From Cuniculiplasma divulgatum (lineage in GTDB: Archaea > Thermoplasmatota > Thermoplasmata > Thermoplasmatales > Thermoplasmataceae): DNA of 32,000 nt. Location of the stretch: NCBI RefSeq assembly GCF_900083515.1, contig NZ_LT671858.1:540001-572000 (forward strand), read 5' to 3'. Of the stretch, positions 11,604-22,100 are shown piece after piece. The position numbers and the translations under genes are program-made. The notes below the pieces were generated by a model, which was given only the letters and a program-made list of their open reading frames with translations, was not told the DNA's origin and made no database searches. Within the stretch, counting starts at the first letter, position 1. The number at the start of each line of letters is the position of its first letter.

Positions 11604-12686
11604 CTAGTATTTTAGTTCTCTTTCCAGTGATATCAAAGCTTCTGAAACAATTTCAGCACTTTTCTCCACGTCCTCCAGTCTTATGAATTCATTATTAGTA
11701 TGTGAAAGCTGGGTGTTTCCTGGACCATAAGTTATAGCAGGAATATTCCATGAATTTCCGAGAACGTTCATATCGCCACTCCCGCTTTTGAACACAAGCC
11801 TGGCATTGGCCCCAGTCTTCTGACCTATTGCGAAACGAAATGCCTTGGCCAGTGGGCTTTTCGTGTTTGATACATAAGGCTTTACCTCGCTAATTATTCT
11901 TATTTTCACCTGAACTGGGAGATTCAATGATTCGCATATTCCTAACACTTCTTTCAGGATGTCATTTTTATCTACTGGCATGGGAAATCTAATATCAAGT
12001 GTTATTGTCGTTTTTGAGGGGATAACATTGTCTGATCTGCCTCCATGAATACCAGTCATTGCGACAGATACTTCATAAAACCCCGTTCTTCCGGAATAAT
12101 GATCCCTAATTTTAGACCATGCCGTCATGGCGGCATCCACAGAGCCGCCTCCGATCCAGGGAGCACTGGCATGAAAAGGTTCCGTTTCGAACATAACATC
12201 TAATAATAATCTTCCCCGGTAACCAACAGTAATGCCGTCAACATTACCAGGCTCACCGAATATTGCATAATCGCTCTTCGGTTGTGTCCGTGCAACCTCA
12301 AGTATGCCCTTTCCCATGCCTTCTTCTCCAGTTGCAGCTATTACGGTCAATGTTCCCTTGAACCCTGCCTCCTTAGCGATTATTGCACCATAGAGAAGTG
12401 AAACCAGTGATGACTTTGCATCCACTGACCCCCTACCATACAAAACTCCATTCTTAACCATGACTGGGAGTTTTCCTGGAACAGTATCTATATGACCACA
12501 TAGAGTTATGGATAATCCCTCTCCGGCAAATATACCGAGTCCATTTCCTGCTCTATCTGTTATAACATTTGTTGCCCCTAATTTCTTAAGATACGAATTG
12601 AATATCGAGATAGCCTGTTTTTCTTTTCCAGTGGGTGAGTAGGTTTTAACGAGATGAATTAGAGTATTATCTATATCCTTAATCAT
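11604..12686 (-). CDS. lysK: [LysW]-lysine/[LysW]-ornithine hydrolase (M20 deacylase, LysK/ArgE-like)
   Basis: 360-aa ORF with the M20 metallopeptidase metal-ligand block CGHIDTVP and a GEEG block. It is the last gene of the lysW operon and overlaps lysX by 4 nt. Confidence 0.75.
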   Translation of the reverse strand: MIKDIDNTLIHLVKTYSPTGKEKQAISIFNSYLKKLGATNVITDRAGNGLGIFAGEGLSITLCGHIDTVPGKLPVMVKNGVLYGRGSVDAKSSLVSLLYGAIIAKEAGFKGTLTVIAATGEEGMGKGILEVARTQPKSDYAIFGEPGNVDGITVGYRGRLLLDVMFETEPFHASAPWIGGGSVDAAMTAWSKIRDHYSGRTGFYEVSVAMTGIHGGRSDNVIPSKTTITLDIRFPMPVDKNDILKEVLGICESLNLPVQVKIRIISEVKPYVSNTKSPLAKAFRFAIGQKTGANARLVFKSGSGDMNVLGNSWNIPAITYGPGNTQLSHTNNEFIRLEDVEKSAEIVSEALISLERELKY

Positions 12687-13531
12687 TTCGAAACCTCAAG
12701 AAGATAGTCCAATATATCCCCAGGTATATCGATCTGAGTAGTGCTTGCTATTGTCTTGAACTCACTGGTACTATTAACCTCATGAACAAGGTAACCCCGT
12801 TCTGATTCCATTATGTCCACTCCTAGTATTCCATTTCCAACGCTTCTCGCAGCTTTTAGCGATATTTTCTCTAGCTCTGTAGTAATTTCACATTTCTCTG
12901 CACGTCCACCTATGGCGGCATTAGTTCTCCAGTCCCCTTCTGGCTGATATCTATACATTCCACACACTACTCGATCACCTATGACAAATATTCTTATGTC
13001 TCTTGGAGGTCTCTTAACATATTCCTGTAAATAGAATATTGAATACAAAGGATACATATATTCTCTGTCCTCTAGAAGAGCCATCGCCGATTCCGGGTTA
13101 TTCATGAGCGCAATCATTCTGCCCCAACTTCCTATTACTGGTTTAAGAACTGCTCTTCCCTGAAATTTTTCCGAAAACTGTTTCATTGCAGTTTCGTAAC
13201 TGGTGGAAACTGATGTTAAGGGTGATGGGACTCCGTTTGAAATAAGGGCCAGGGAGGTCAACATCTTATTTCCAGCGTTAATTATCGTCTTAAGATCATT
13301 TAGAACACTTTGTTTCTTATACTCAAGAAAGGCTGTCGAATGAAGTCCGCGATAATACGATGTGCATCGTTGCAGCGTTATGTTTCCATAATAATCGGGT
13401 AAAGGCTTATCGAAGTCCATATCAATGTCCTTAACATTTAACATTTTCAATTCTATTCCTTTCCTGTTAGCGGCCCTAAAAATAGCCTTTTCCTCCCACC
13501 TGACGGTATCATAAATCATAGAAATATTCAT
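12683..13531 (-). CDS. lysX: RimK-type ATP-grasp ligase, LysX/ArgX-like (loads substrate onto the LysW C-terminus)
   Basis: 282-aa ORF with size and layout of LysX-family ATP-grasp enzymes. It has 4-nt overlaps with both neighbours inside the lysW operon. Confidence 0.75.
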   Translation of the reverse strand: MNISMIYDTVRWEEKAIFRAANRKGIELKMLNVKDIDMDFDKPLPDYYGNITLQRCTSYYRGLHSTAFLEYKKQSVLNDLKTIINAGNKMLTSLALISNGVPSPLTSVSTSYETAMKQFSEKFQGRAVLKPVIGSWGRMIALMNNPESAMALLEDREYMYPLYSIFYLQEYVKRPPRDIRIFVIGDRVVCGMYRYQPEGDWRTNAAIGGRAEKCEITTELEKISLKAARSVGNGILGVDIMESERGYLVHEVNSTSEFKTIASTTQIDIPGDILDYLLEVSK

Positions 13532-14742
13532 TTTTGATCGTTCCTTCCCTGCTTCTTTATATATTGATCGAGTGCAGTCTTTAGTATTTCAATCGCACGA
13601 TCAACCTCTTCCTTGGAGACAGTGTAGGGTGGCAGCATCCTTATTGTGTTTATTCCTGAGTATAATGTAATGAGACCAAGATCAATCATATCCATAAGTA
13701 TGGGAACGAATCTTACTCTAAGTTCCATGGCAAGCATCATTCCAATACCCCTCGTCTGTGATACCAGTCTATGGGAATCGGTTTCCTCATTCATTCTTTG
13801 AAGTGTGTATTTTCCCATTTCACTGGCCCGTTTTATCATCCCGTTTCTTAGTTCTTTTATTACCACTTCTCCTGCGGCACATGATAAGGGATTTCCACCA
13901 GTTGTAGAACTCTGCTCCCCAATTCCAAGTGACTCAACGAATTCTCTTTTTCCCACTGTTACGCCCATTGGTATTCCACCTCCAATGCCCTTGCCTATTG
14001 TCATTATATCCGGAGTTATTCCCCAGTTTTCGTGTGCCCACATCTTTCCGGTCCTTCCAAGTCCGGATTGAATTTCGTCCATTACCAGGAGTGTTCCATA
14101 GCTGGATGTAGCCTCCCTGACAGACGGGAGAAATTGAGGGTCTGGGAGATTGATACCACCCTCTCCCTGAATTGGTTCCATGAATACGGCTGCAACATCT
14201 TCCTTTTTTAACAAAGTATGAACATGTTCATAATCTCCAAATTTCACAAATTCAACACCCGGGATCAGCATGTCTTCAAAAGAACTCCTGTATTTTGCTG
14301 AATGTGTTATGGAGAGGGCCCCCAGTGTTTTTCCATGATAACCCTTCTCCATGCTTATGATTTTTTTTCTTTTAGTCGATTTAACCGCTATTTTTAGTGC
14401 CGCCTCTATGGCTTCCGCCCCGCTATTTGAAAGATACGCCATGTTTAGCCCCGTCGGTGTAACATTCATAAGTTCTCTAAGAAATCTCGCCCTCGCAGGG
14501 CTGTAAACTGATGTGTGCGTTATATATATTTCATCCACTTGCTTTTTTATTGCCTCTGTTATGGCATTATTTGAGTGACCAAGAATAGCGACTCCATACC
14601 CACTCATAAAATCAAAATATTCCTTTCCGTTCATATCCCATATTTTTGTCCCTTTAGCTCTGGCTGCAACCACTGGTATTTTCTGATATGTGCCCGCGAG
14701 GTAACGGTCTTCAATCTCCTCAGTAAGCCCGTTTTTCATCAT
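13528..14742 (-). CDS. lysJ: class III PLP aminotransferase, LysJ/ArgD-like
   Basis: 404-aa ORF with the block LVMDEIQSGLGRTGKMWA typical of acetylornithine/LysW-aminotransferases. Sits within the operon. Confidence 0.85.
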   Translation of the reverse strand: MMKNGLTEEIEDRYLAGTYQKIPVVAARAKGTKIWDMNGKEYFDFMSGYGVAILGHSNNAITEAIKKQVDEIYITHTSVYSPARARFLRELMNVTPTGLNMAYLSNSGAEAIEAALKIAVKSTKRKKIISMEKGYHGKTLGALSITHSAKYRSSFEDMLIPGVEFVKFGDYEHVHTLLKKEDVAAVFMEPIQGEGGINLPDPQFLPSVREATSSYGTLLVMDEIQSGLGRTGKMWAHENWGITPDIMTIGKGIGGGIPMGVTVGKREFVESLGIGEQSSTTGGNPLSCAAGEVVIKELRNGMIKRASEMGKYTLQRMNEETDSHRLVSQTRGIGMMLAMELRVRFVPILMDMIDLGLITLYSGINTIRMLPPYTVSKEEVDRAIEILKTALDQYIKKQGRNDQK

Positions 14743-15542
14743 TTTGTTATCACCGTCCTTATATTCGTGTTAATTGCGGCTGATATTGGCATTGGTCTAT
14801 TTCCATTGGCAATAATTACCTCATTGGTACCAGCTTCTATGGATTCAATCGCGGCCATGATCTTTTTATCCATGCCATTCCCAACCAGTCTTAACATTTT
14901 TACAGCCTGTTTCATATTAAGTTTCTCCACTAATTTTCCGTTAAAAATTATACCATCGACGTCCGTTAAAAGGATCATCTTTGTGGCTTTCAATTCCCCA
15001 GATATAGCTGATGCAGCTCTATCTCCATCTACGTTCAGAGGTTCATGCTCCAGTCCAACCGCAATAGGCGCTACTACAGGGGTGATTTTTTCAGAAAAAA
15101 GATACTTAATGAACGTTCCATTTACCGATAATATCTTACCGGTGTATCCACCATCAATGAACATTTTCCTACCCTTCTCATTCATCGCTATTAACCTTTT
15201 TTTCCTCTCCGCAATAATCGTGGGCCCATCGATACCAGACATACCGAAGGACTTCATTCCAGCCTTTTGCAGTGCAAGAACTATGGACGCGTTAATGCTT
15301 CCACGCATACTCATTATATAGGTTTGCATCGTTTGAGCATCTGTGTATCTACTTCTTATTCCACTGGGAGAAGTAATAAATTTCGCCTCCATATTCAACC
15401 TTTTACAAAGATCGGTGACAGCAGGACCTCCACCATGGACAATCACATATTCATCATCTTTGTTCGATGAGAAATCTTTGGTAAAACTTTCTGATATACC
15501 ATTTTTCATTAGACTTCCTCCCAGCTTTAAAACAATTACCAC
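14739..15542 (-). CDS. lysZ: amino-acid kinase, LysZ/ArgB-like
   Basis: 267-aa ORF with N-terminal VLKLGGS and VIVHGGGP motifs of the acetylglutamate-kinase family. Confidence 0.85.
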   Translation of the reverse strand: MVIVLKLGGSLMKNGISESFTKDFSSNKDDEYVIVHGGGPAVTDLCKRLNMEAKFITSPSGIRSRYTDAQTMQTYIMSMRGSINASIVLALQKAGMKSFGMSGIDGPTIIAERKKRLIAMNEKGRKMFIDGGYTGKILSVNGTFIKYLFSEKITPVVAPIAVGLEHEPLNVDGDRAASAISGELKATKMILLTDVDGIIFNGKLVEKLNMKQAVKMLRLVGNGMDKKIMAAIESIEAGTNEVIIANGNRPMPISAAINTNIRTVITK

Positions 15543-15545
15543 GAT

Positions 15546-16598
15546 TTACACCAGCCGCATTGGAGACATCATTAACCCCTCTTTCTCATCAAATCCTTCC
15601 ATAATATTCATTGATTGAATTGCGTTTCCAGCTGCTCCCTTTATTAGGTTATCTATTGAACCAATAGCAACTATCCTTTTTACATGCCGATCAATAGCGA
15701 ATCCAAGGTCTATGAAATTTGAACCTACAACAAGTTTAGGATCAGGGTATTTATAGACCCCGCTTGGATCCATTATGAACCTAACAAATGGTTCTTCTCC
15801 ATACATTGTTCGGTAAGCGTTCCATATATTCTGAATTTTAGGCTCTCTCTCTACAAATACACTACTTGTAGTTAGAATTCCTCGAACCATGTTAATTGAG
15901 TGTGCTGACATAGTAACTTTTACTTTGGTACCTGAAATAATAGAAAGTTCCTGCTCAATTTCTCCTATGTGCCTATGTCCTGATGGACTGTATATCCTTA
16001 CCGAATTGTACCTTTCTGAAAAGTGAGTCGCCATGGATGGCTTATTTCCTGAGCCCGACGAACCTATTTTAGCGTCAATCACCACCACTCCATCCAGAAA
16101 TCCTGCCTTGGCAAGTGGTGCAATGCTATAAATCGAAGAGCTTGCAATGCATCCTGGAACAGAAATGAAACGTGCCGACTTCAATTCTTTCCTGTGAAGT
16201 TCTGGCATGCCGTAGACAAATTTCTGGAGAAGGTCAGGGGCTGGATGCTCCCAGCCATACCAGACTGGATAATCTGCCTGGTTCCTAAACCTGAAATCCG
16301 CACTCATATCTACAATCTTCACTCCCATTTCAGACATTTCAGGCACATGTTCAATGGATGATCCGTGTGGAACCGCCATAAAAACAATATCTACTTTTGA
16401 TGCAGCTTCTTCTGGGGTGTCCATGGAAAATCTCATAGAAGTGAACCCTTTGAGATTAGGATGCGCTTTGAAAACATACTCCCCGGCATGCTGTTGTGAA
16501 GTTGCAACTTTGACTTCGACTTCAGGATGCATCAGAAGAAGTCGCAGTAGTTCCCCCCCAACATATCCCGATGCACCAACAATAGCTACTGTCTTCAA
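15546..16598 (-). CDS. lysY: N-acyl-gamma-glutamyl/aminoadipyl-phosphate reductase, LysY/ArgC-like
   Basis: 350-aa ORF with a TTG start. Rossmann motif VAIVGASGYVGGELLRLL and catalytic-Cys block VPGCIASS typical of ArgC. Confidence 0.9.
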   Translation of the reverse strand: MKTVAIVGASGYVGGELLRLLLMHPEVEVKVATSQQHAGEYVFKAHPNLKGFTSMRFSMDTPEEAASKVDIVFMAVPHGSSIEHVPEMSEMGVKIVDMSADFRFRNQADYPVWYGWEHPAPDLLQKFVYGMPELHRKELKSARFISVPGCIASSSIYSIAPLAKAGFLDGVVVIDAKIGSSGSGNKPSMATHFSERYNSVRIYSPSGHRHIGEIEQELSIISGTKVKVTMSAHSINMVRGILTTSSVFVEREPKIQNIWNAYRTMYGEEPFVRFIMDPSGVYKYPDPKLVVGSNFIDLGFAIDRHVKRIVAIGSIDNLIKGAAGNAIQSMNIMEGFDEKEGLMMSPMRLV

Positions 16599-16680
16599 TT
16601 AGTAATTCCCCATTCTAAACAGAAAATAGTGATCACTTTTTTACTAATATACGAAATGAAACCGTAAGATTCTGGGCTAT

Positions 16681-16860
16681 TCATTCACCCCAATCCTCCT
16701 TTACCTCCTCTGCCACCTTGAGAAAAAATTTTCCAGGACTTTCTTCCTGTATTTCATAATCCAGTCCACAATCTCCACAACTGACAATTTCTCCTTTTAA
16801 GGCATCATCAGGGACTATAACCTTTCCACCACACATTTTACATTCCATATTCATTTTCAT
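16681..16860 (-). CDS. lysW: amino-group carrier protein LysW
   Basis: Zinc-ribbon CxxC...CxxC (CKMCGG...CGDCG) and an acidic tail ending EDWGE, the same C-terminus as Thermus LysW. The listed 77-aa ORF is probably too long. The likely start is one of three clustered ATGs (MKMNMECK), giving 55-59 aa; a G6 run sits just upstream. Confidence 0.85.
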   Translation of the reverse strand: MKMNMECKMCGGKVIVPDDALKGEIVSCGDCGLDYEIQEESPGKFFLKVAEEVKEDWGE

Positions 16861-17838
16861 CCCCCCTAGATCCAAAACAGAGCCGTAAGCTATGCAACTC
16901 TTCTGGAGTAGCATTTAATGAGACTTGTTTTGTAGTATTCCATTTATTTTATATAAATATTAAAACGTTATTGCCATAATTAGTCTTAGTTAGATTAAAA
17001 TGGTTAGAATTGAAATATTTATTAATAAAACTGTCAGAAATCTTGTCACCAGTGATACTATTATAGCAACATTCTTCAATAGATATGGTTCCAGTCAAGG
17101 AGGCAAAAGTAGTTAAAAAACCATTATTTTGGCTCAATTTTCAACATTTCACTTTTGTAAAATAACGAAAAACAGATCATATTTAATATAAAGGGTGTGT
17201 TTGTAATACAGCAATGCAAAATACTCCATAGAACTCCTAAATCATAAGTATCAATACAAGATAATTACGGTTGCAAAAGGTTAAAATGCTGATTGAAGAG
17301 CAGTCATTTGCAACTATAGTATGAAAAAAAGGAGTGTGACACAGACAAATCAACAACGGCAAGAATTTAACAATAAAAAAACTCTCAAAGGTAGGGTCAT
17401 CAGATGTCAGAACATAAATTACGACTCTAAAATTATAATGTTAACAGAACCGTTTGGTACGATTTATAACTGATTAAACAAAGATAATTTAGAAGCGCTA
17501 TGAAAGTTTTGATTTAGAAGATTTTTCAGACTCTCTGAGACTTATCTTCTTGCTGTGTTCCTTACGATACGTGCCAAGATCAACCTGACTTTGTACATTA
17601 ACGAGCAGTTACTCTTCCCTGATGGGAAGTCTCTTCTGTAGAATCTTTTCTATAGAATAAAGTTTATACATTACTACATTCTGGAATCCTATTATTTCAG
17701 AAAGGAGTGAATATGTTCCGCTCTGATATATCAAGATCATTGAATATATAATTGATGTAGTTTTTACTTTATCTCTTAAAAAATAAACCACATATGAAGT
17801 GGACCTGAACAGACGTCATTATAAGTGTAAGTAAATCC

Positions 17839-17850: not shown

Positions 17851-18040
17851 AACGAAATTTATGATTGTCATCTTCTCTAATAACGTTTATCGTTAAACTG
17901 ATAAGTTAACATCTTGCTCTACCAGATCTTGTAACGCATTCAGGAAAAAATTCAATTAAAACCTTTGAAAAATCTAAAACATCTATTCCTTCACTTAATT
18001 TAGTAGCAAACTAAAAAAAGAAGAATAGTATTTAGTATTA

Positions 18041-18322
18041 ATGAAGGAAATGAGTGTGGAAGTTCTTAATTTGGCTCGAAACTTTGATGTTGAGAGTGGT
18101 AAGCCATCTGTCGTTGTATCATTTGGAAATTGCATAGATAGCACTCCAGATGTAAGAGAGAGGGTTGAAGCAAGTGGACAGACAGCTCAACCGGATAAAA
18201 CAATTGCCAATCGAGTAATATTATTCGTGCCAGATGTATCTGAAACGCCATACATTCTTGGCTCTAAATGGAATTTAAAAATAGAAGATAATGGTTCCAT
18301 ATCAATAACAAGGGATATGTAA
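18041..18322 (+). CDS. hypothetical protein, first gene of a three-gene cassette
   Basis: 93-aa ORF with non-repetitive, protein-like composition and no motif I recognise. It is followed 2 nt later by the next ORF. Confidence 0.5.
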   Translation: MKEMSVEVLNLARNFDVESGKPSVVVSFGNCIDSTPDVRERVEASGQTAQPDKTIANRVILFVPDVSETPYILGSKWNLKIEDNGSISITRDM

Positions 18323-18324
18323 AT

Positions 18325-18936
18325 ATGACATTTACAAGTCAAATAACAAATTATTCTTCAAATGCTGGAGAGAGTCCAAAAATTTTATTTTATCCTACTC
18401 AACTTGCAATTAAAGAAGATAGACATAAAAGAAAACCTTACGAAGGAAAAAATGTCATTGGTGAAAAATTTTCAATCCCTACATCAATTCCAATAGGGCC
18501 TTTTGAAAGTTTCACAAATTCAGACCCTATTAAGACCTCAAAAAAGAGTCCAAGCAATATCTTAGATAATACCTTAGAAAAAATAGTAAAGACAAAATTC
18601 GCTTTCATTAGTCCTGACAATCTTTCATTGATAAAAAATTATATTTCTAAAATGCATGCAACGAACAACTACAATCCAATAAATCTATTACTTATGGTTG
18701 AGAAAACAAACAAATATTTACACGAAGTTACTCAATATGGAAAAGAAATTTTCACAGAGATAGAATATTTTTTAGACGAAGAGGATGAAAAGTTAGATGG
18801 AATATCGATAAATATTTATTTGCCAGTCAAGGATGCAAAAGAGATTTCTGATATTTGGAACTACCTGAACGAAAATATTGATTCCGGAGAAAGTGGCTCT
18901 GAAAGGATCTTTTTTAACATTAGAAAAAAGATGTAA
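18325..18936 (+). CDS. hypothetical protein, second gene of the cassette
   Basis: 203-aa ORF. The N-terminal ~90 aa are Ser/Pro/Lys-rich and look disordered; the C-terminal ~110 aa look like a globular acidic domain. No GS...DxD nucleotidyltransferase motif. Confidence 0.5.
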   Translation: MTFTSQITNYSSNAGESPKILFYPTQLAIKEDRHKRKPYEGKNVIGEKFSIPTSIPIGPFESFTNSDPIKTSKKSPSNILDNTLEKIVKTKFAFISPDNLSLIKNYISKMHATNNYNPINLLLMVEKTNKYLHEVTQYGKEIFTEIEYFLDEEDEKLDGISINIYLPVKDAKEISDIWNYLNENIDSGESGSERIFFNIRKKM

Positions 18937-18939
18937 AGT

Positions 18940-19353
18940 ATGCAACCGAAAACTTTGCTAAGGCTTTCATCTGAATTTATTTCAATGATGTCTAAAATGT
19001 CAGATGATGATCTCATAGAAGGTTTAGTTAGAGCATCCATTGAAAAATCCTACTATTATGCATTCCTAGCAATTAGAGAAGCAATGACTGCAATTGGAAT
19101 CCAGATAACTGGGACTTCTGTGGCGCATCATGAAGTCATCGAAAATCTAAAAGAATTCTGTGAGCCTAAAATGGCTAATATCTATAGTAGGAAGCTCAAA
19201 AGTCTAAGGTCTCAAAGAAATACGGCCACGTACGATCTTTCTAAAAAGATAGACAAAATTGACGCAGAATCTTTAATATTAGAAGTGGGAAAACTATTGG
19301 AGGAATTAAGTAAAGATAAAAATTTGGGTGCCCAAATATTAAATTATAAATAA
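18940..19353 (+). CDS. HEPN-like all-helical protein, third gene of the cassette
   Basis: 137-aa ORF with a helical heptad-like pattern. An aromatic/Ala-rich helix (KSYYYAFLAIREAM) is followed by HHEV. SLRSQRNTATYD lies in the last third, giving R-N-x3-Y where RNase-type HEPN domains have R-x4-6-H. Confidence 0.45.
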   Translation: MQPKTLLRLSSEFISMMSKMSDDDLIEGLVRASIEKSYYYAFLAIREAMTAIGIQITGTSVAHHEVIENLKEFCEPKMANIYSRKLKSLRSQRNTATYDLSKKIDKIDAESLILEVGKLLEELSKDKNLGAQILNYK

Positions 19354-19845
19354 CGCTCCCACAATCACGTGTCATAACCACTTCAAGATTATATAAAGGA
19401 AAAAGAGAAAGCATTCAATTGTTTATATGCTCATTTACTAATCTCTATTGCAATATATATTTCTAAAAGCAGTTTCAAAGTTATAAGTAATCGATTCTAA
19501 AATGACTAAAATCAATGTGAATAATTAAACACTATTGAATTTGTATTGTCTAAACATAATTTACTTAGCTGGTGGATTGCTTCTCTTGTTTCATGCCACA
19601 TCTGATCAATGGATCATGAGTATAGAAAAGTGAGATATCATAGATTATAAACACATTAAATGAATTCAAAATTATTTGATGCTGTCGGTGAAACTCCTAA
19701 CCTAAGACTGCCTTGATGGGAAAAAAAACGGATCTCCTCTTTTTCCATTTCCTGTTCTTGATGTTTTTCCTTTTCTTTCTAGAATTGTCAGGGCAAACCC
19801 TACCTGCATTGTTAGATGAGTAGTAAAAAAATACAAATCATTTAA

Positions 19846-20961
19846 ATGAAAACAATGAATTTACCATTTGGTAAAAAATTGGAATTTACTAAATTACATT
19901 CAATGAATGAAAAAGAAACGATTAATGAATTCATTAAGAAACTACCATCTCTCCTACCGAATATGGATATAGAGGACATATCATACGAAATACCAATAGA
20001 CAAAAAGAGTTATTCTCATATAATGGTCAAGATTCTAACCGGAAATAAAAAGAAAAACCTACTTATTGAGGTTAAATCCAATGGAGAGCCAAGGTTTGTC
20101 GAAAGGTCCATTTATCAACTTAAAAATTTAACTAAAATTAAAAAAGGAATATACCCCGTTTTTGTCGCCCCTTACATTAGTGAAAGAGCAAGGGAAATTC
20201 TTAAATCAGAAAACATAGGTTATATTGATTTAATAGGAGACGCATACCTGCAATTTGACTCAGTATTGGTAGACCGTATAAGCATCGCTGAGAGGAAAAC
20301 AGAGAGACGTCTCAATCGCGGTATATTTGCCAGTAAGGCAACTCGCATTTTAAGAGCAATCCTTAATGATCCTGGTAAGAAATGGAAGAACACAGAACTT
20401 GCCAATATATGCAGAATGAGCCCTGCCGGTGTTTACTTTGTTGTGAATCAGCTTGAAGATAAAGGCTATGTATCACGCGATGAGGACAAGAGCATTAAAT
20501 TAATAGATTCAAAAAGGCTTCTAAAAAATTGGGCATCAAACTGGACAGTAGAAAAGAGCAGATCAAATGCTTTCTTCTCATTTGCAAGAAGTCCAGAAGA
20601 GATAATATTAAAACTCGCAAAGGCAGCAGATGAGTTGAATCTGAAATACGCATTCACAGGAATGGCAGGAGCTTCAATGGTAGCACCATTTGTACGATAT
20701 AATGATGTATGGGTATATATCTCAGGAGACCTAAATGAGATAGTGAAGAAACTTGACCTCAGACCAACAAGCTCTGGAGCCAATATTAGGATTTTTGAGC
20801 CCTTTGATGATGGAATATTTATGGATTTTAGGGAGATCAGAGGAATAAATGTGGTGAGTAACATCCAACTTTTTGTAGATCTATTCACATACCCAGGCCG
20901 GGGACAAGAGCAGGCTGAAAAAATTCTTGAGATAAATAGCAAAGAGGATGATATATCTTGA
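19846..20961 (+). CDS. AbiEi-like wHTH protein with an N-terminal PD-(D/E)xK-like extension
   Basis: 371-aa ORF in three parts. Residues ~60-140 show a nuclease-fold-like pattern (LLIEVKSNG...SIYQLKNL...YPVFVAPYIS...IGYIDL). Residues ~160-225 form a winged helix (WKNTELANICRMSPAGVYFVVNQLEDKGYVSRD). The C-terminal domain (YAFTGMAGASMVAPF...VWVYISGD...VVSNIQLFVDL) resembles the AbiEi antitoxin C-terminal domain. Confidence 0.5.
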   Translation: MKTMNLPFGKKLEFTKLHSMNEKETINEFIKKLPSLLPNMDIEDISYEIPIDKKSYSHIMVKILTGNKKKNLLIEVKSNGEPRFVERSIYQLKNLTKIKKGIYPVFVAPYISERAREILKSENIGYIDLIGDAYLQFDSVLVDRISIAERKTERRLNRGIFASKATRILRAILNDPGKKWKNTELANICRMSPAGVYFVVNQLEDKGYVSRDEDKSIKLIDSKRLLKNWASNWTVEKSRSNAFFSFARSPEEIILKLAKAADELNLKYAFTGMAGASMVAPFVRYNDVWVYISGDLNEIVKKLDLRPTSSGANIRIFEPFDDGIFMDFREIRGINVVSNIQLFVDLFTYPGRGQEQAEKILEINSKEDDIS

Positions 20962-22004: not shown

Positions 22005-22009
22005 GTCTA

Positions 22010-22082
22010 TGGGCCCGACCGGATTTGAACCGGTGACCACCGCCTTGTAAGGGCGGTATCATAACCACTAGACTACGAGCCC
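22010..22082 (-). tRNA. tRNA-Val (anticodon UAC), no encoded CCA
   Basis: The reverse complement reads GGGCTCGTAGTCTAGTGGTTATGATACCGCCCTTACAAGGCGGTGGTCACCGGTTCAAATCCGGTCGGGCCCA. It has a 7-bp acceptor stem (one G-U), anticodon stem CCGCC/GGCGG with loop CTTACAA, a GGTTCAAATCC T-loop and discriminator A. Confidence 0.9.
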
Positions 22083-22100
22083 TCTCTTCAGGATATTCAC

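Follow-up and report, generated by a model that had tools for sequence, protein, structure and literature searches.

A conserved three-gene cassette ending in a Class II HEPN protein is a candidate toxin-antitoxin-like module of the Thermoplasmata

We analyzed a 32,000-nucleotide stretch of the genome of Cuniculiplasma divulgatum, a cultured acidophilic Thermoplasmatales archaeon (contig NZ_LT671858.1, positions 540,001 to 572,000, hereafter the window), with a focus on three tightly packed genes at window positions 18041 to 19353. A preliminary description made from the DNA letters alone had reported three same-strand open reading frames (ORFs) of 93, 203 and 137 amino acids (aa) separated by 2 and 3 nucleotides (nt), which are located exactly as it described, and had proposed that they form an undescribed three-component toxin-antitoxin (TA) or abortive-infection module. 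We find that the trio is a conserved unit and, with a probability of roughly 0.6, consider it to be a translationally coupled, horizontally mobile, tripartite TA-like module of the Thermoplasmata. The strongest evidence, which is invisible from the window alone, is that the family of the first protein also heads cassettes that end in ParE/RelE-type toxins. This link and the conservation of the trio fit the TA-like proposal, while what the preliminary description said of the HEPN motif, of a neighboring AbiE locus and of a genomic island had to be corrected. Overall, the observations on which we build are that the ORFs are real genes, that the trio is conserved, that ORF3 is a HEPN family member, that a nucleotidyltransferase is missing, that ORF1 is linked to ParE/RelE toxins, and that the cassette shows patterns of mobility and decay. 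New here are two protein families without library annotation, combined with a Class II HEPN protein. The features of the cassette are:

17939..18040, plus strand: presumed promoter and 5' leader, which moves with the cassette (DNA similarity across unrelated contexts)
18041..18322, plus strand: ORF1, 93 aa, small beta-barrel with one helix, best-conserved cassette member
18325..18936, plus strand: ORF2, 203 aa, 2-nt gap from ORF1
18325..18555, plus strand: ORF2 N-terminal region (aa 1-77), variable, basic, predicted disordered
18556..18936, plus strand: ORF2 C-terminal domain (aa 78-203), conserved acidic alpha/beta domain, putative antitoxin moiety
18940..19353, plus strand: ORF3, 137 aa, 3-nt gap from ORF2, HEPN protein (PF05168, 'Class II'), putative toxin
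19126..19128, plus strand: H63 of ORF3, invariant, aligned with the His of 'SHS' in 9xbd_A
19216..19233, plus strand: R93-N94-T-A-T-Y98 motif of ORF3 (followed by D-L), the Rx4H equivalent, invariant in all trio HEPN proteins

The three genes are conserved as a unit

Word-indexed searches of 5.8 billion proteins returned only 8 relatives of ORF2, 8 of ORF1 and 6 of ORF3. An exhaustive HMMER search of 1.84 billion cluster representatives (1.84e9) with a profile of the ORF2 C-terminal domain gave 8 proteins in all, six of which were new, with the five full-length ones being 18-30% identical to ORF2. Every ORF2 relative on a long enough contig lies between an ORF1 homolog and a HEPN homolog. Specifically, the relatives have sizes of 93-96 aa for ORF1, 201-231 aa for ORF2 and 136-141 aa for the HEPN protein, with a spacing that ranges from gaps of 2-3 nt through to overlaps of 4-11 nt. 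The preliminary description had suggested looking for the trio as neighbors in other genomes, and this is indeed what is observed in ~10 lineages that are distinct in sequence, of which one comes from a soil metagenome. Because the same order and tight spacing recur in these lineages, the trio is a real conserved unit far beyond chance.

At the greatest distance, identity to the window proteins is 43-57% for ORF1, 36-45% for ORF3 and 19-30% for ORF2. The ratio of nonsynonymous to synonymous substitution rates (dN/dS) among distant pairs is 0.11-0.25 for ORF1, 0.33-0.50 for ORF2 and 0.17-0.49 for ORF3, and it is also below 1 (0.38-0.63) in the N-terminal region of ORF2. All three ORFs are thus real genes under purifying selection.

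The distribution of the trio is rare, patchy and narrow, with the cassette being present in 1 of 185,579 species-representative genomes, a Thermoplasmata metagenome-assembled genome (MAG). The exact ORF1-3 proteins are already on record as hypothetical or HEPN-domain proteins of C. divulgatum. A literature search found no paper that describes the trio; in the genome paper of C. divulgatum, the TA passage lists vapBC and mazEF, and the word 'HEPN' is absent from the text.

The ORF1 family also heads cassettes with ParE/RelE-type toxins

The strongest argument that the window trio is TA-like, with the toxin as its third gene, is provided by the ORF1 family, since this family heads both HEPN-type and ParE/RelE-type cassettes. 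A scan of metagenomes with an ORF1 profile revealed 12 distant ORF1 homologs with 26-37% identity in the best tblastn segment and 19-34% identity in the superfamily alignment, adding nine further cassette lineages. Invariant residues of this superfamily are E7, P70, Y71, G74, S75, W77 and G85. None of the 12 is followed by an ORF2 or HEPN homolog. The second cassette type, found at loci L025-L036, consists of an ORF1-like protein of 84-103 aa, a middle protein of 82-117 aa whose N-terminus varies and whose C-terminus has a conserved acidic motif (DP[LI]TxEE...), and a third protein of 88-111 aa that matches ParE/RelE superfamily toxin models. The third-gene scores are 28.8 bits for PF15781 (gathering threshold, GA, of 28) and 26.1 bits for PF05016 (GA 23), with weaker matches to YoeB and YafQ. 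A tblastn search recovered the toxin gene of L032; that of L031 is truncated. These loci range in G+C content from 0.36 to 0.54, and at least two of them lie beside archaeal markers (Kae1, NMD3-like protein). This ParE/RelE-type three-gene cassette itself appears to be undescribed.

The ORF1 family is thus combined with two effector families that are unrelated to each other, and in both cases it supplies the first of three genes. In the ParE/RelE-type cassettes the middle protein has an isoelectric point (pI) of 4.0-4.6 and the toxin one of 9.5-9.7, and this classical acidic/basic pairing is mirrored by the ORF2 C-terminal domain and ORF3. A short N-terminal motif may be shared by ORF2 and the ParE-type middle proteins, but it is too weak to claim.

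As the preliminary description had anticipated, ORF1 is rich in beta structure. Its AlphaFold2 (AF2) model is confident, with a predicted local distance difference test (pLDDT) score of 84.8, and consists of a long hairpin, a single helix and another three strands, giving five strands in total. Foldseek searches of the Protein Data Bank (PDB) and a viral library gave weak but consistently OB-fold matches (SSB, PriB, DUF2500, DUF3127) at E values of 0.02-0.1 and template modeling (TM) scores of 0.4-0.5. Neither ORF1 nor ORF2 matches any Pfam, NCBIfam, PADLOC or PHROGs family, which agrees with both having been called unrecognizable, and there is no Pfam match in any of 15 ORF1 family members or, at E values up to 1, in any of 9 ORF2 family members. 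Searches of PDB sequences with ORF1 and ORF2 also gave nothing meaningful. Family profile searches with ORF1 detected no helix-turn-helix (HTH), ribbon-helix-helix (RHH), AbrB or SecB signature. A relationship of ORF1 to AbrB/SpoVT-like antitoxins, suspected from its C-terminal pattern, was rejected given an hhalign probability of 0.2 against the AbrB N-domain.

ORF3 has the features of a Class II HEPN protein

The assignment of ORF3 as HEPN-like is borne out by its match to the Pfam HEPN family PF05168, the only Pfam family above threshold, which scores 26.4 bits (cut-off 22) and aligns residues 21-123 with profile positions 15-114 of 117. ORF3 also matches PDC-M05B, the HEPN component of the PADLOC candidate system PDC-M05 (5.9e-6), and phrog_5176, a PHROGs phage-protein family of unknown function (6.3e-12). 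Some homologs have a precomputed PF05168 match and some are named 'UPF0332 family' by JGI. The pI of ORF3 is 7.8-9.6 across trio lineages, and its invariant residues are E27, G28, R31, K36, Y38-40, R46, A62, H63, R90, R93, N94, A96 and Y98.

The preliminary description had noted that ORF3 carries R-N-x3-Y, with Tyr in place of the His of RNase-type HEPN proteins, and had called the catalytic status uncertain for this reason. The motif is indeed present in the stretch SLRSQRNTATYD (R93 at 19216-19218, Y98 at 19231-19233). However, when ORF3 point variants were scored in silico against the PF05168 profile, the Y98H and Y98F variants both dropped from the wild-type score to 21.5 bits, a cost of 4.9 bits that is the largest loss among the conservative changes tested, and Y98A dropped by 6.6 bits to 19.8. 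Smaller changes were observed for R93A (24.3), R90A (24.5), H63A (25.4) and N94A (26.1). Given the loss caused by Y98H, Tyr is the PF05168 consensus at the 'His' position, and R-N-x3-Y is normal for this family. The register of the alignment is confirmed by weak matches to HEPN families of the Rx4H type that appeared with Y98H.

These features correspond to what has been described for 'Class II' HEPN/minimal nucleotidyltransferase (MNT) modules, in which the PF05168 protein is without RX4HXY and keeps a conserved Tyr, for which adenylylation has been proposed (PMC7641770). Class II modules are commoner than Class I modules in archaea (PMC7641770; PMC11586414). In AF0298-like PF05168 proteins the motif His is missing, and there is an alternative conserved His in a helix 2-3 insert together with an Ex3[KR] motif (PMC3710099). 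ORF3 has both of these traits in the form of the invariant H63, for which a catalytic role may be presumed, and E27-x3-R31. Judged by its sequence, ORF3 is thus an ordinary Class II HEPN protein with a catalytic status as uncertain as that of the whole class.

The closest solved structure to ORF3 is 9xbd_A, a 'HEPN domain-containing protein' that was found in a PDB profile search at a marginal E value of 0.0019 and that has in common with ORF3 an upstream His and RNxxxY. Note that 9xbd and 9xbc were reached only by the broader profile A7, with no match obtained from the ORF3 single sequence or the shallow profile A4. PDB entry 9xbc_A differs from 9xbd_A by a Tyr-to-Phe change at the position aligned to ORF3 Y98, so this Tyr has evidently been probed. 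No paper citing 9xbd was found in a literature search.

ORF2 does not resemble a nucleotidyltransferase

ORF2 had been portrayed as a probably disordered N-terminus followed by an acidic C-terminal domain, and this architecture is upheld by the AF2 model and by pI values. The N-terminus has no secondary structure in the model (pLDDT 33-41), differs in length and sequence by lineage with the reading frame preserved, and is basic, with a pI that is mostly 8-9.9 (6.7 in L004). The C-terminal domain of ~126 residues has a pI of ~4.8-5 in most lineages and up to 6.6, and the AF2 model predicts, at low confidence, three helices followed by a strand-strand-helix-strand arrangement. Invariant residues of ORF2 are L121, D151, E153, W178, L181, N182, F196 and F197. 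The recommended structure prediction and Foldseek check was thus informative for ORF1 (a beta-barrel that is weakly OB-like) and not for ORF2, as the ORF2 model has a pLDDT of 42.8, which is too poor for fold assignment. Its Foldseek matches are heterogeneous (type III secretion system ring proteins, the MamM C-terminal domain, OsmC, ribosomal S3) with E values all above 0.03, and we leave them uninterpreted.

In type VII TA systems, MntA AMPylates HepT. An arrangement of this type, in which the ORF2 C-terminal domain is a diverged nucleotidyltransferase that modifies Tyr98 of ORF3, would account for ORF2 occupying the nucleotidyltransferase gene position and for the invariant D151-x-E153 that ends a predicted ORF2 strand. 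The proposed adenylylation of the Class II Tyr (PMC7641770) and the Tyr-to-Phe variant at the aligned position in the closest solved HEPN structure point in the same direction. We nevertheless consider such a cryptic enzyme highly improbable. The GSX10DXD motif, or a looser G[SG]...[DE]x[DE], is absent from 10/10 ORF2 sequences. There is no NTP_transf_2 or other Pfam match among the nine family members noted above and no match to PDC-M05A, the predicted order of structural elements lacks the strand-GS-helix-strand-DxD core, and Foldseek returned no nucleotidyltransferase for the ORF2 model, unreliable as that model is. The assignment of ORF2 as a nucleotidyltransferase was thus rejected on motif, Pfam and PADLOC evidence, as the preliminary description had expected. 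No member of the ORF1 family has a nucleotidyltransferase motif either.

The cassette moves, recombines and decays

Similarity of the cassette DNA across unrelated contexts extends from ~60-100 nt upstream of ORF1 to within bases of the ORF3 stop codon. Specifically, similarity begins at 17939 relative to L001, at 17972 relative to L010 and at 17980 relative to L013, and it ends at 19348-19349. We presume that the 17939..18040 segment functions as a promoter; no convincing operator palindrome and no conserved repeat was found in the conserved upstream region. The cassette has LysW and AbiE as neighbors in the window and an amino-acid permease and HicAB in L001 (a Thermoplasmataceae MAG), with a thermopsin gene, an endonuclease VII gene or an HTH regulator nearby in other lineages. 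In L004 the cassette, which is 79% identical to that of the window, is inverted relative to a flank (L004 2162-2305) that is 99% identical to window 17425-17565, and it abuts the reverse complement of the window upstream flank. One junction is at ~17565/19788 of the window and the second lies beyond the contig, so that a ~2.2-kb segment in L004 has been inverted or re-inserted. In L006 (1241-1318) and L007 (1740-1814) the tRNA-Val of the window (22009-22085) is ~150 nt from the cassette with no AbiE genes in between, the cassette being intact in L006 and decayed in L007. This indicates that the LysW-to-tRNA-Val stretch is probably a variable insertion site. The cassette is, in short, horizontally mobile.

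Several copies are degraded. In L017, ORF1 is frameshifted, ORF2 is intact and ORF3 lacks residues 23-75; in L007-L009, ORF1 and the ORF2 N-terminus are gone and ORF3 is frameshifted; and in L012, ORF1 is intact, ORF2 has stop codons and ORF3 is N-terminally truncated and carries Y98C. ORF3 is therefore inactivated in 3/3 independent degraded copies while ORF2 or ORF1 can stay intact, and no copy with an intact ORF3 beside a broken ORF2 was present among those examined. This is the pattern of decay that one expects if ORF3 is the harmful component.

Strain-level relatives are mosaic within the cassette as a result of recombination. Across ORF1 and the larger part of ORF2, L003 and L017 resemble the window (96-100%), and past a breakpoint at ~18840-18900 they carry an L004-like allele (92-100%) that comprises the last ~30 ORF2 codons, ORF3 and downstream DNA. 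A comparison of ORF3 from L010 (8001-8411) with that from L013 (6044-6454) gave a dN of 0.096 and a dS of 0.036, which is a ratio of ~2.7 based on ~30 substitutions, with dN/dS for the same pair of loci being 0.05 for ORF1 and 0.13 for ORF2. Recombination and the elevated ORF3 ratio together suggest diversification of the HEPN protein, with the counts being small.

The trio as a probable toxin-antitoxin-like module

In the mechanism that we propose, ORF3 would be the effector, or toxin, and would presumably act on RNA by means of H63, E27/R31 and the invariant cluster of R93, N94 and Y98. ORF2 would fill the place of the minimal nucleotidyltransferase of ordinary HEPN modules and would most likely neutralize ORF3 in a type II manner, by direct binding through its acidic C-terminal domain, with its basic disordered N-terminus possibly being a lability or tethering element. 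ORF1 would be a small beta-barrel accessory subunit common to the sibling ParE/RelE-type cassettes. We infer the toxicity of ORF3 and its neutralization by ORF2 by analogy, from charge complementarity and the positional match with the ParE/RelE cassettes; the role given to ORF1, and any antiviral function, are likewise presumptive. The trio has the traits of type II-like TA systems, namely small adjacent co-directional genes that move together, a patchy distribution and frequent decay.

Several points weigh against this reading. ORF1 is the most conserved gene of the trio, unlike TA accessories, which are typically fast-evolving. ORF2 showed no homology to the acidic proteins encoded in the middle of the ParE-type cassettes, with an hhalign probability of 0.1, and the ORF2 model permits no fold assignment. 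The three cases of decay are few. The fast ORF3 and near-static ORF2 of the L010/L013 pair are not what is predicted for a tightly co-evolving toxin-antitoxin interface. ORF3 may also be no RNase at all, given that Class II HEPN proteins lack the RX4H RNase motif. Finally, Class II modules had seen no published biochemical work by 2020, and their HEPN proteins had not been validated as toxins (PMC7641770).

The last two points also bear on the distinctly improbable case that there is no toxin system, and that the trio forms a non-toxic regulatory or RNA-/nucleotide-binding complex with a catalytically inert HEPN protein. HEPN domains that lack the motif have been proposed as binding domains (PMC3710099), and the unusual conservation of ORF1 is in keeping with such a complex. 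What argues against it is the extremely patchy distribution of the trio, its occurrence in several unrelated contexts with inversion and recombination, the repeated pseudogenized copies, the tie of the ORF1 family to bona fide ParE/RelE toxins, and the invariance of R93, N94, Y98, H63, E27 and R31. Taken together, these features look less like a housekeeping complex than like a selfish or conflict module.

Within a TA-like module, ORF1 could be a separate autoregulator, which fits its first-gene position and middle proteins that have no DNA-binding domain. This role is weakened by ORF1 being acidic to neutral (pI 4.7-6.2 in HEPN-type cassettes) and without a DNA-binding signature, and by a conserved operator not being seen. 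ORF1 could instead act as an adaptor or chaperone on the disordered extension that the antitoxin-position proteins carry. This fits a modularity like that of toxin-antitoxin-chaperone (TAC) systems and the charge of ORF1, which is opposite to that of the ORF2 N-terminus; the extensions have no demonstrable motif in common. A role as a sensor is possible and unsupported.

Tentatively, the ORF1 family may even represent an unrecognized archaeal class of tripartite conflict modules in which a beta-barrel chaperone, adaptor or sensor governs interchangeable antitoxin-toxin pairs, although the odds do not favor this extension. The pairs so far would be ORF2 with Class II HEPN, and the acidic protein with ParE/RelE. 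If true, this class would parallel, in archaea, the TAC logic of bacteria, and it would also constitute the first genetic evidence that MNT-less PF05168 HEPN proteins with R-x4-Y are genuine toxins. The cassette HEPN keeps its Arg, Asn, Tyr and His without a nucleotidyltransferase, which makes an intrinsic role of the Tyr separable from the role of adenylylation acceptor that has been proposed for it. The ORF1-ParE/RelE link is in addition an independent comparative argument for the third gene as a toxin and points to a modular accessory protein. With a cultured host and small proteins, these predictions are directly testable, and since the family is rare any general impact would come from mechanism and not from prevalence.

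Comparison with known systems places the cassette near, but outside of, several of them. Among them are Class II HEPN/MNT modules (PF05168 with PF01909), which include PDC-M05, an archaea-enriched system that pairs a nucleotidyltransferase (A) with a HEPN protein (B) and whose antiviral role is unconfirmed (PMC12988326). As in these modules, ORF3 is a PF05168 HEPN of usual size with the Tyr of R-N-x3-Y and an upstream His, it ends a small, tightly packed, mobile operon, and it matches PDC-M05B. The cassette differs in having three genes and not two, with the partner slot being taken by two proteins of no known family and with no nucleotidyltransferase in the cassette or the 32-kb window besides a dead AbiEii. 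The type VII HepT/MntA system (Class I) likewise has a HEPN effector downstream of its neutralizer, in a small operon that is widespread on mobile DNA. In contrast to HepT, ORF3 has no RX4HXY, has Tyr at the His position and belongs to PF05168 and not to DUF86 (PMC7641770), and the cassette has no detectable AMPylating partner. The proposed control of ORF3 by a non-enzymatic protein antitoxin that holds a HEPN nuclease inactive has a parallel in RnlA/RnlB and LsoA/LsoB, where HEPN RNase toxins are neutralized by direct protein binding (PMC3710099). However, RnlA and LsoA are large, multidomain, bacterial proteins with canonical Rx4-6H, and neither system has a third gene or a component related in sequence to ORF2.

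Among tripartite systems we compared the cassette with paaR2-paaA2-parE2, omega-epsilon-zeta and TAC. All have three small co-directional genes, and the antitoxin-position protein has no recognizable DNA-binding domain. The resemblance to TAC is one of logic and not of membership, in that one accessory family (ORF1 here, SecB-like in TAC) is combined with unrelated toxin families and the antitoxin-position proteins bear a disordered extension. Unlike in TAC, the 15 ORF1 family members have no SecB match and the weak fold matches are OB-like; ORF1 is the first gene while the TAC chaperone is usually last; and the extension is N-terminal in the cassette and C-terminal in TAC. Unlike omega-epsilon-zeta and paaR-paaA-parE, the cassette has an acidic to neutral first protein with no match to a DNA-binding family such as RHH or HTH, and no operator-like repeat was found.

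Genomic surroundings and a possible antiviral role

The cassette had been placed in an island, isolated by about 1.1 and 0.5 kb of non-coding DNA and neighbored by an AbiE-like locus. The distances are right (1126 nt upstream to LysW and 492 nt downstream to the gene at 19846), and the window ORF list has no ORF of more than 62 aa in either gap. However, the downstream gap holds a gene remnant, and the surroundings are not a large defense island. The cassette instead lies in a ~5-kb low-GC stretch that runs from LysW to tRNA-Val (G+C of 0.31-0.34 at ~16.9 to 22 kb versus ~0.40 in the flanks), with housekeeping genes on both sides. One flank has ergothioneine-type genes, ArgH, ArgG and a LysW-type arginine/lysine cluster; the other has tRNA-Val, a 3-hydroxyacyl-CoA dehydrogenase, an aminoacyl-tRNA synthetase, NfeD and a ROK protein. 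No structured RNA or tRNA was found within the cassette. The neighboring features are:

16681-16914, minus strand: LysW gene, upstream neighbor of the cassette
19711-19815, minus strand: 3' gene remnant of 35 codons; the intact gene of L003 and L017 encodes 163 aa
19846-20961: AbiEi (PF09952 and winged helix), intact
20958 to ~21329: AbiEii pseudogene, a frameshifted N-terminal fragment in two frames with stop codons
22010-22082: tRNA-Val (RNA scan)

The 163-aa gene of L003 and L017 has a weak winged-helix-like match, and relative to L017 the window is missing ~566 bp between 19814 and 19825. Comparison with proteins of related loci revealed no gene remnants in the 1.1-kb upstream gap. The AbiE-like locus is thus present with an intact AbiEi, and its AbiEii is a frameshifted, truncated pseudogene that lacks ~150 C-terminal residues present in the related MAG locus L017 (12086-12931). 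A 15-nt imperfect direct repeat, CTTCCCTGATGGGAA (17614-17628) and CTGCCTTGATGGGAA (19708-19722), brackets the cassette with a spacing of 2094 nt and may be due to chance.

Given these surroundings, we also considered abortive-infection or antiviral defense, in which an OB-like ORF1 would sense a viral cue, either nucleic acid or protein, and free ORF3 from ORF2. This would extend the TA-like reading rather than exclude it, and we regard it as rather unlikely. It draws on the ORF3 match to the HEPN component of the archaea-enriched PDC-M05 (PMC12988326), which is itself unvalidated, and on the weak ORF1 matches to OB folds that bind single-stranded DNA, set against an ORF1 pI that is poor for nucleic-acid binding. 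The AbiE remnant beside the window cassette and HicAB beside the L001 cassette also favor it, and must be seen against window flanks of a housekeeping nature. Similarly, the ORF3 dN/dS of 2.7 between close relatives and the swapping of alleles are as in an arms race, but the excess amounts to only the roughly 30 substitutions noted above. Lastly, no relatives of ORF1, the ORF1 superfamily or ORF3 were found among viral contigs, and nothing hints at a viral trigger. A viral origin of these proteins was rejected on the same absence of viral relatives.

Outside of the cassette, the window contains a complete-looking LysW-carrier cluster (11604-16914) that comprises LysW, ArgC/LysY, a kinase, an aminotransferase, LysX and an M20 peptidase and that adjoins ArgG and ArgH. 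Since lysine biosynthesis is listed as incomplete in the C. divulgatum genome paper, this cluster presumably serves arginine synthesis.

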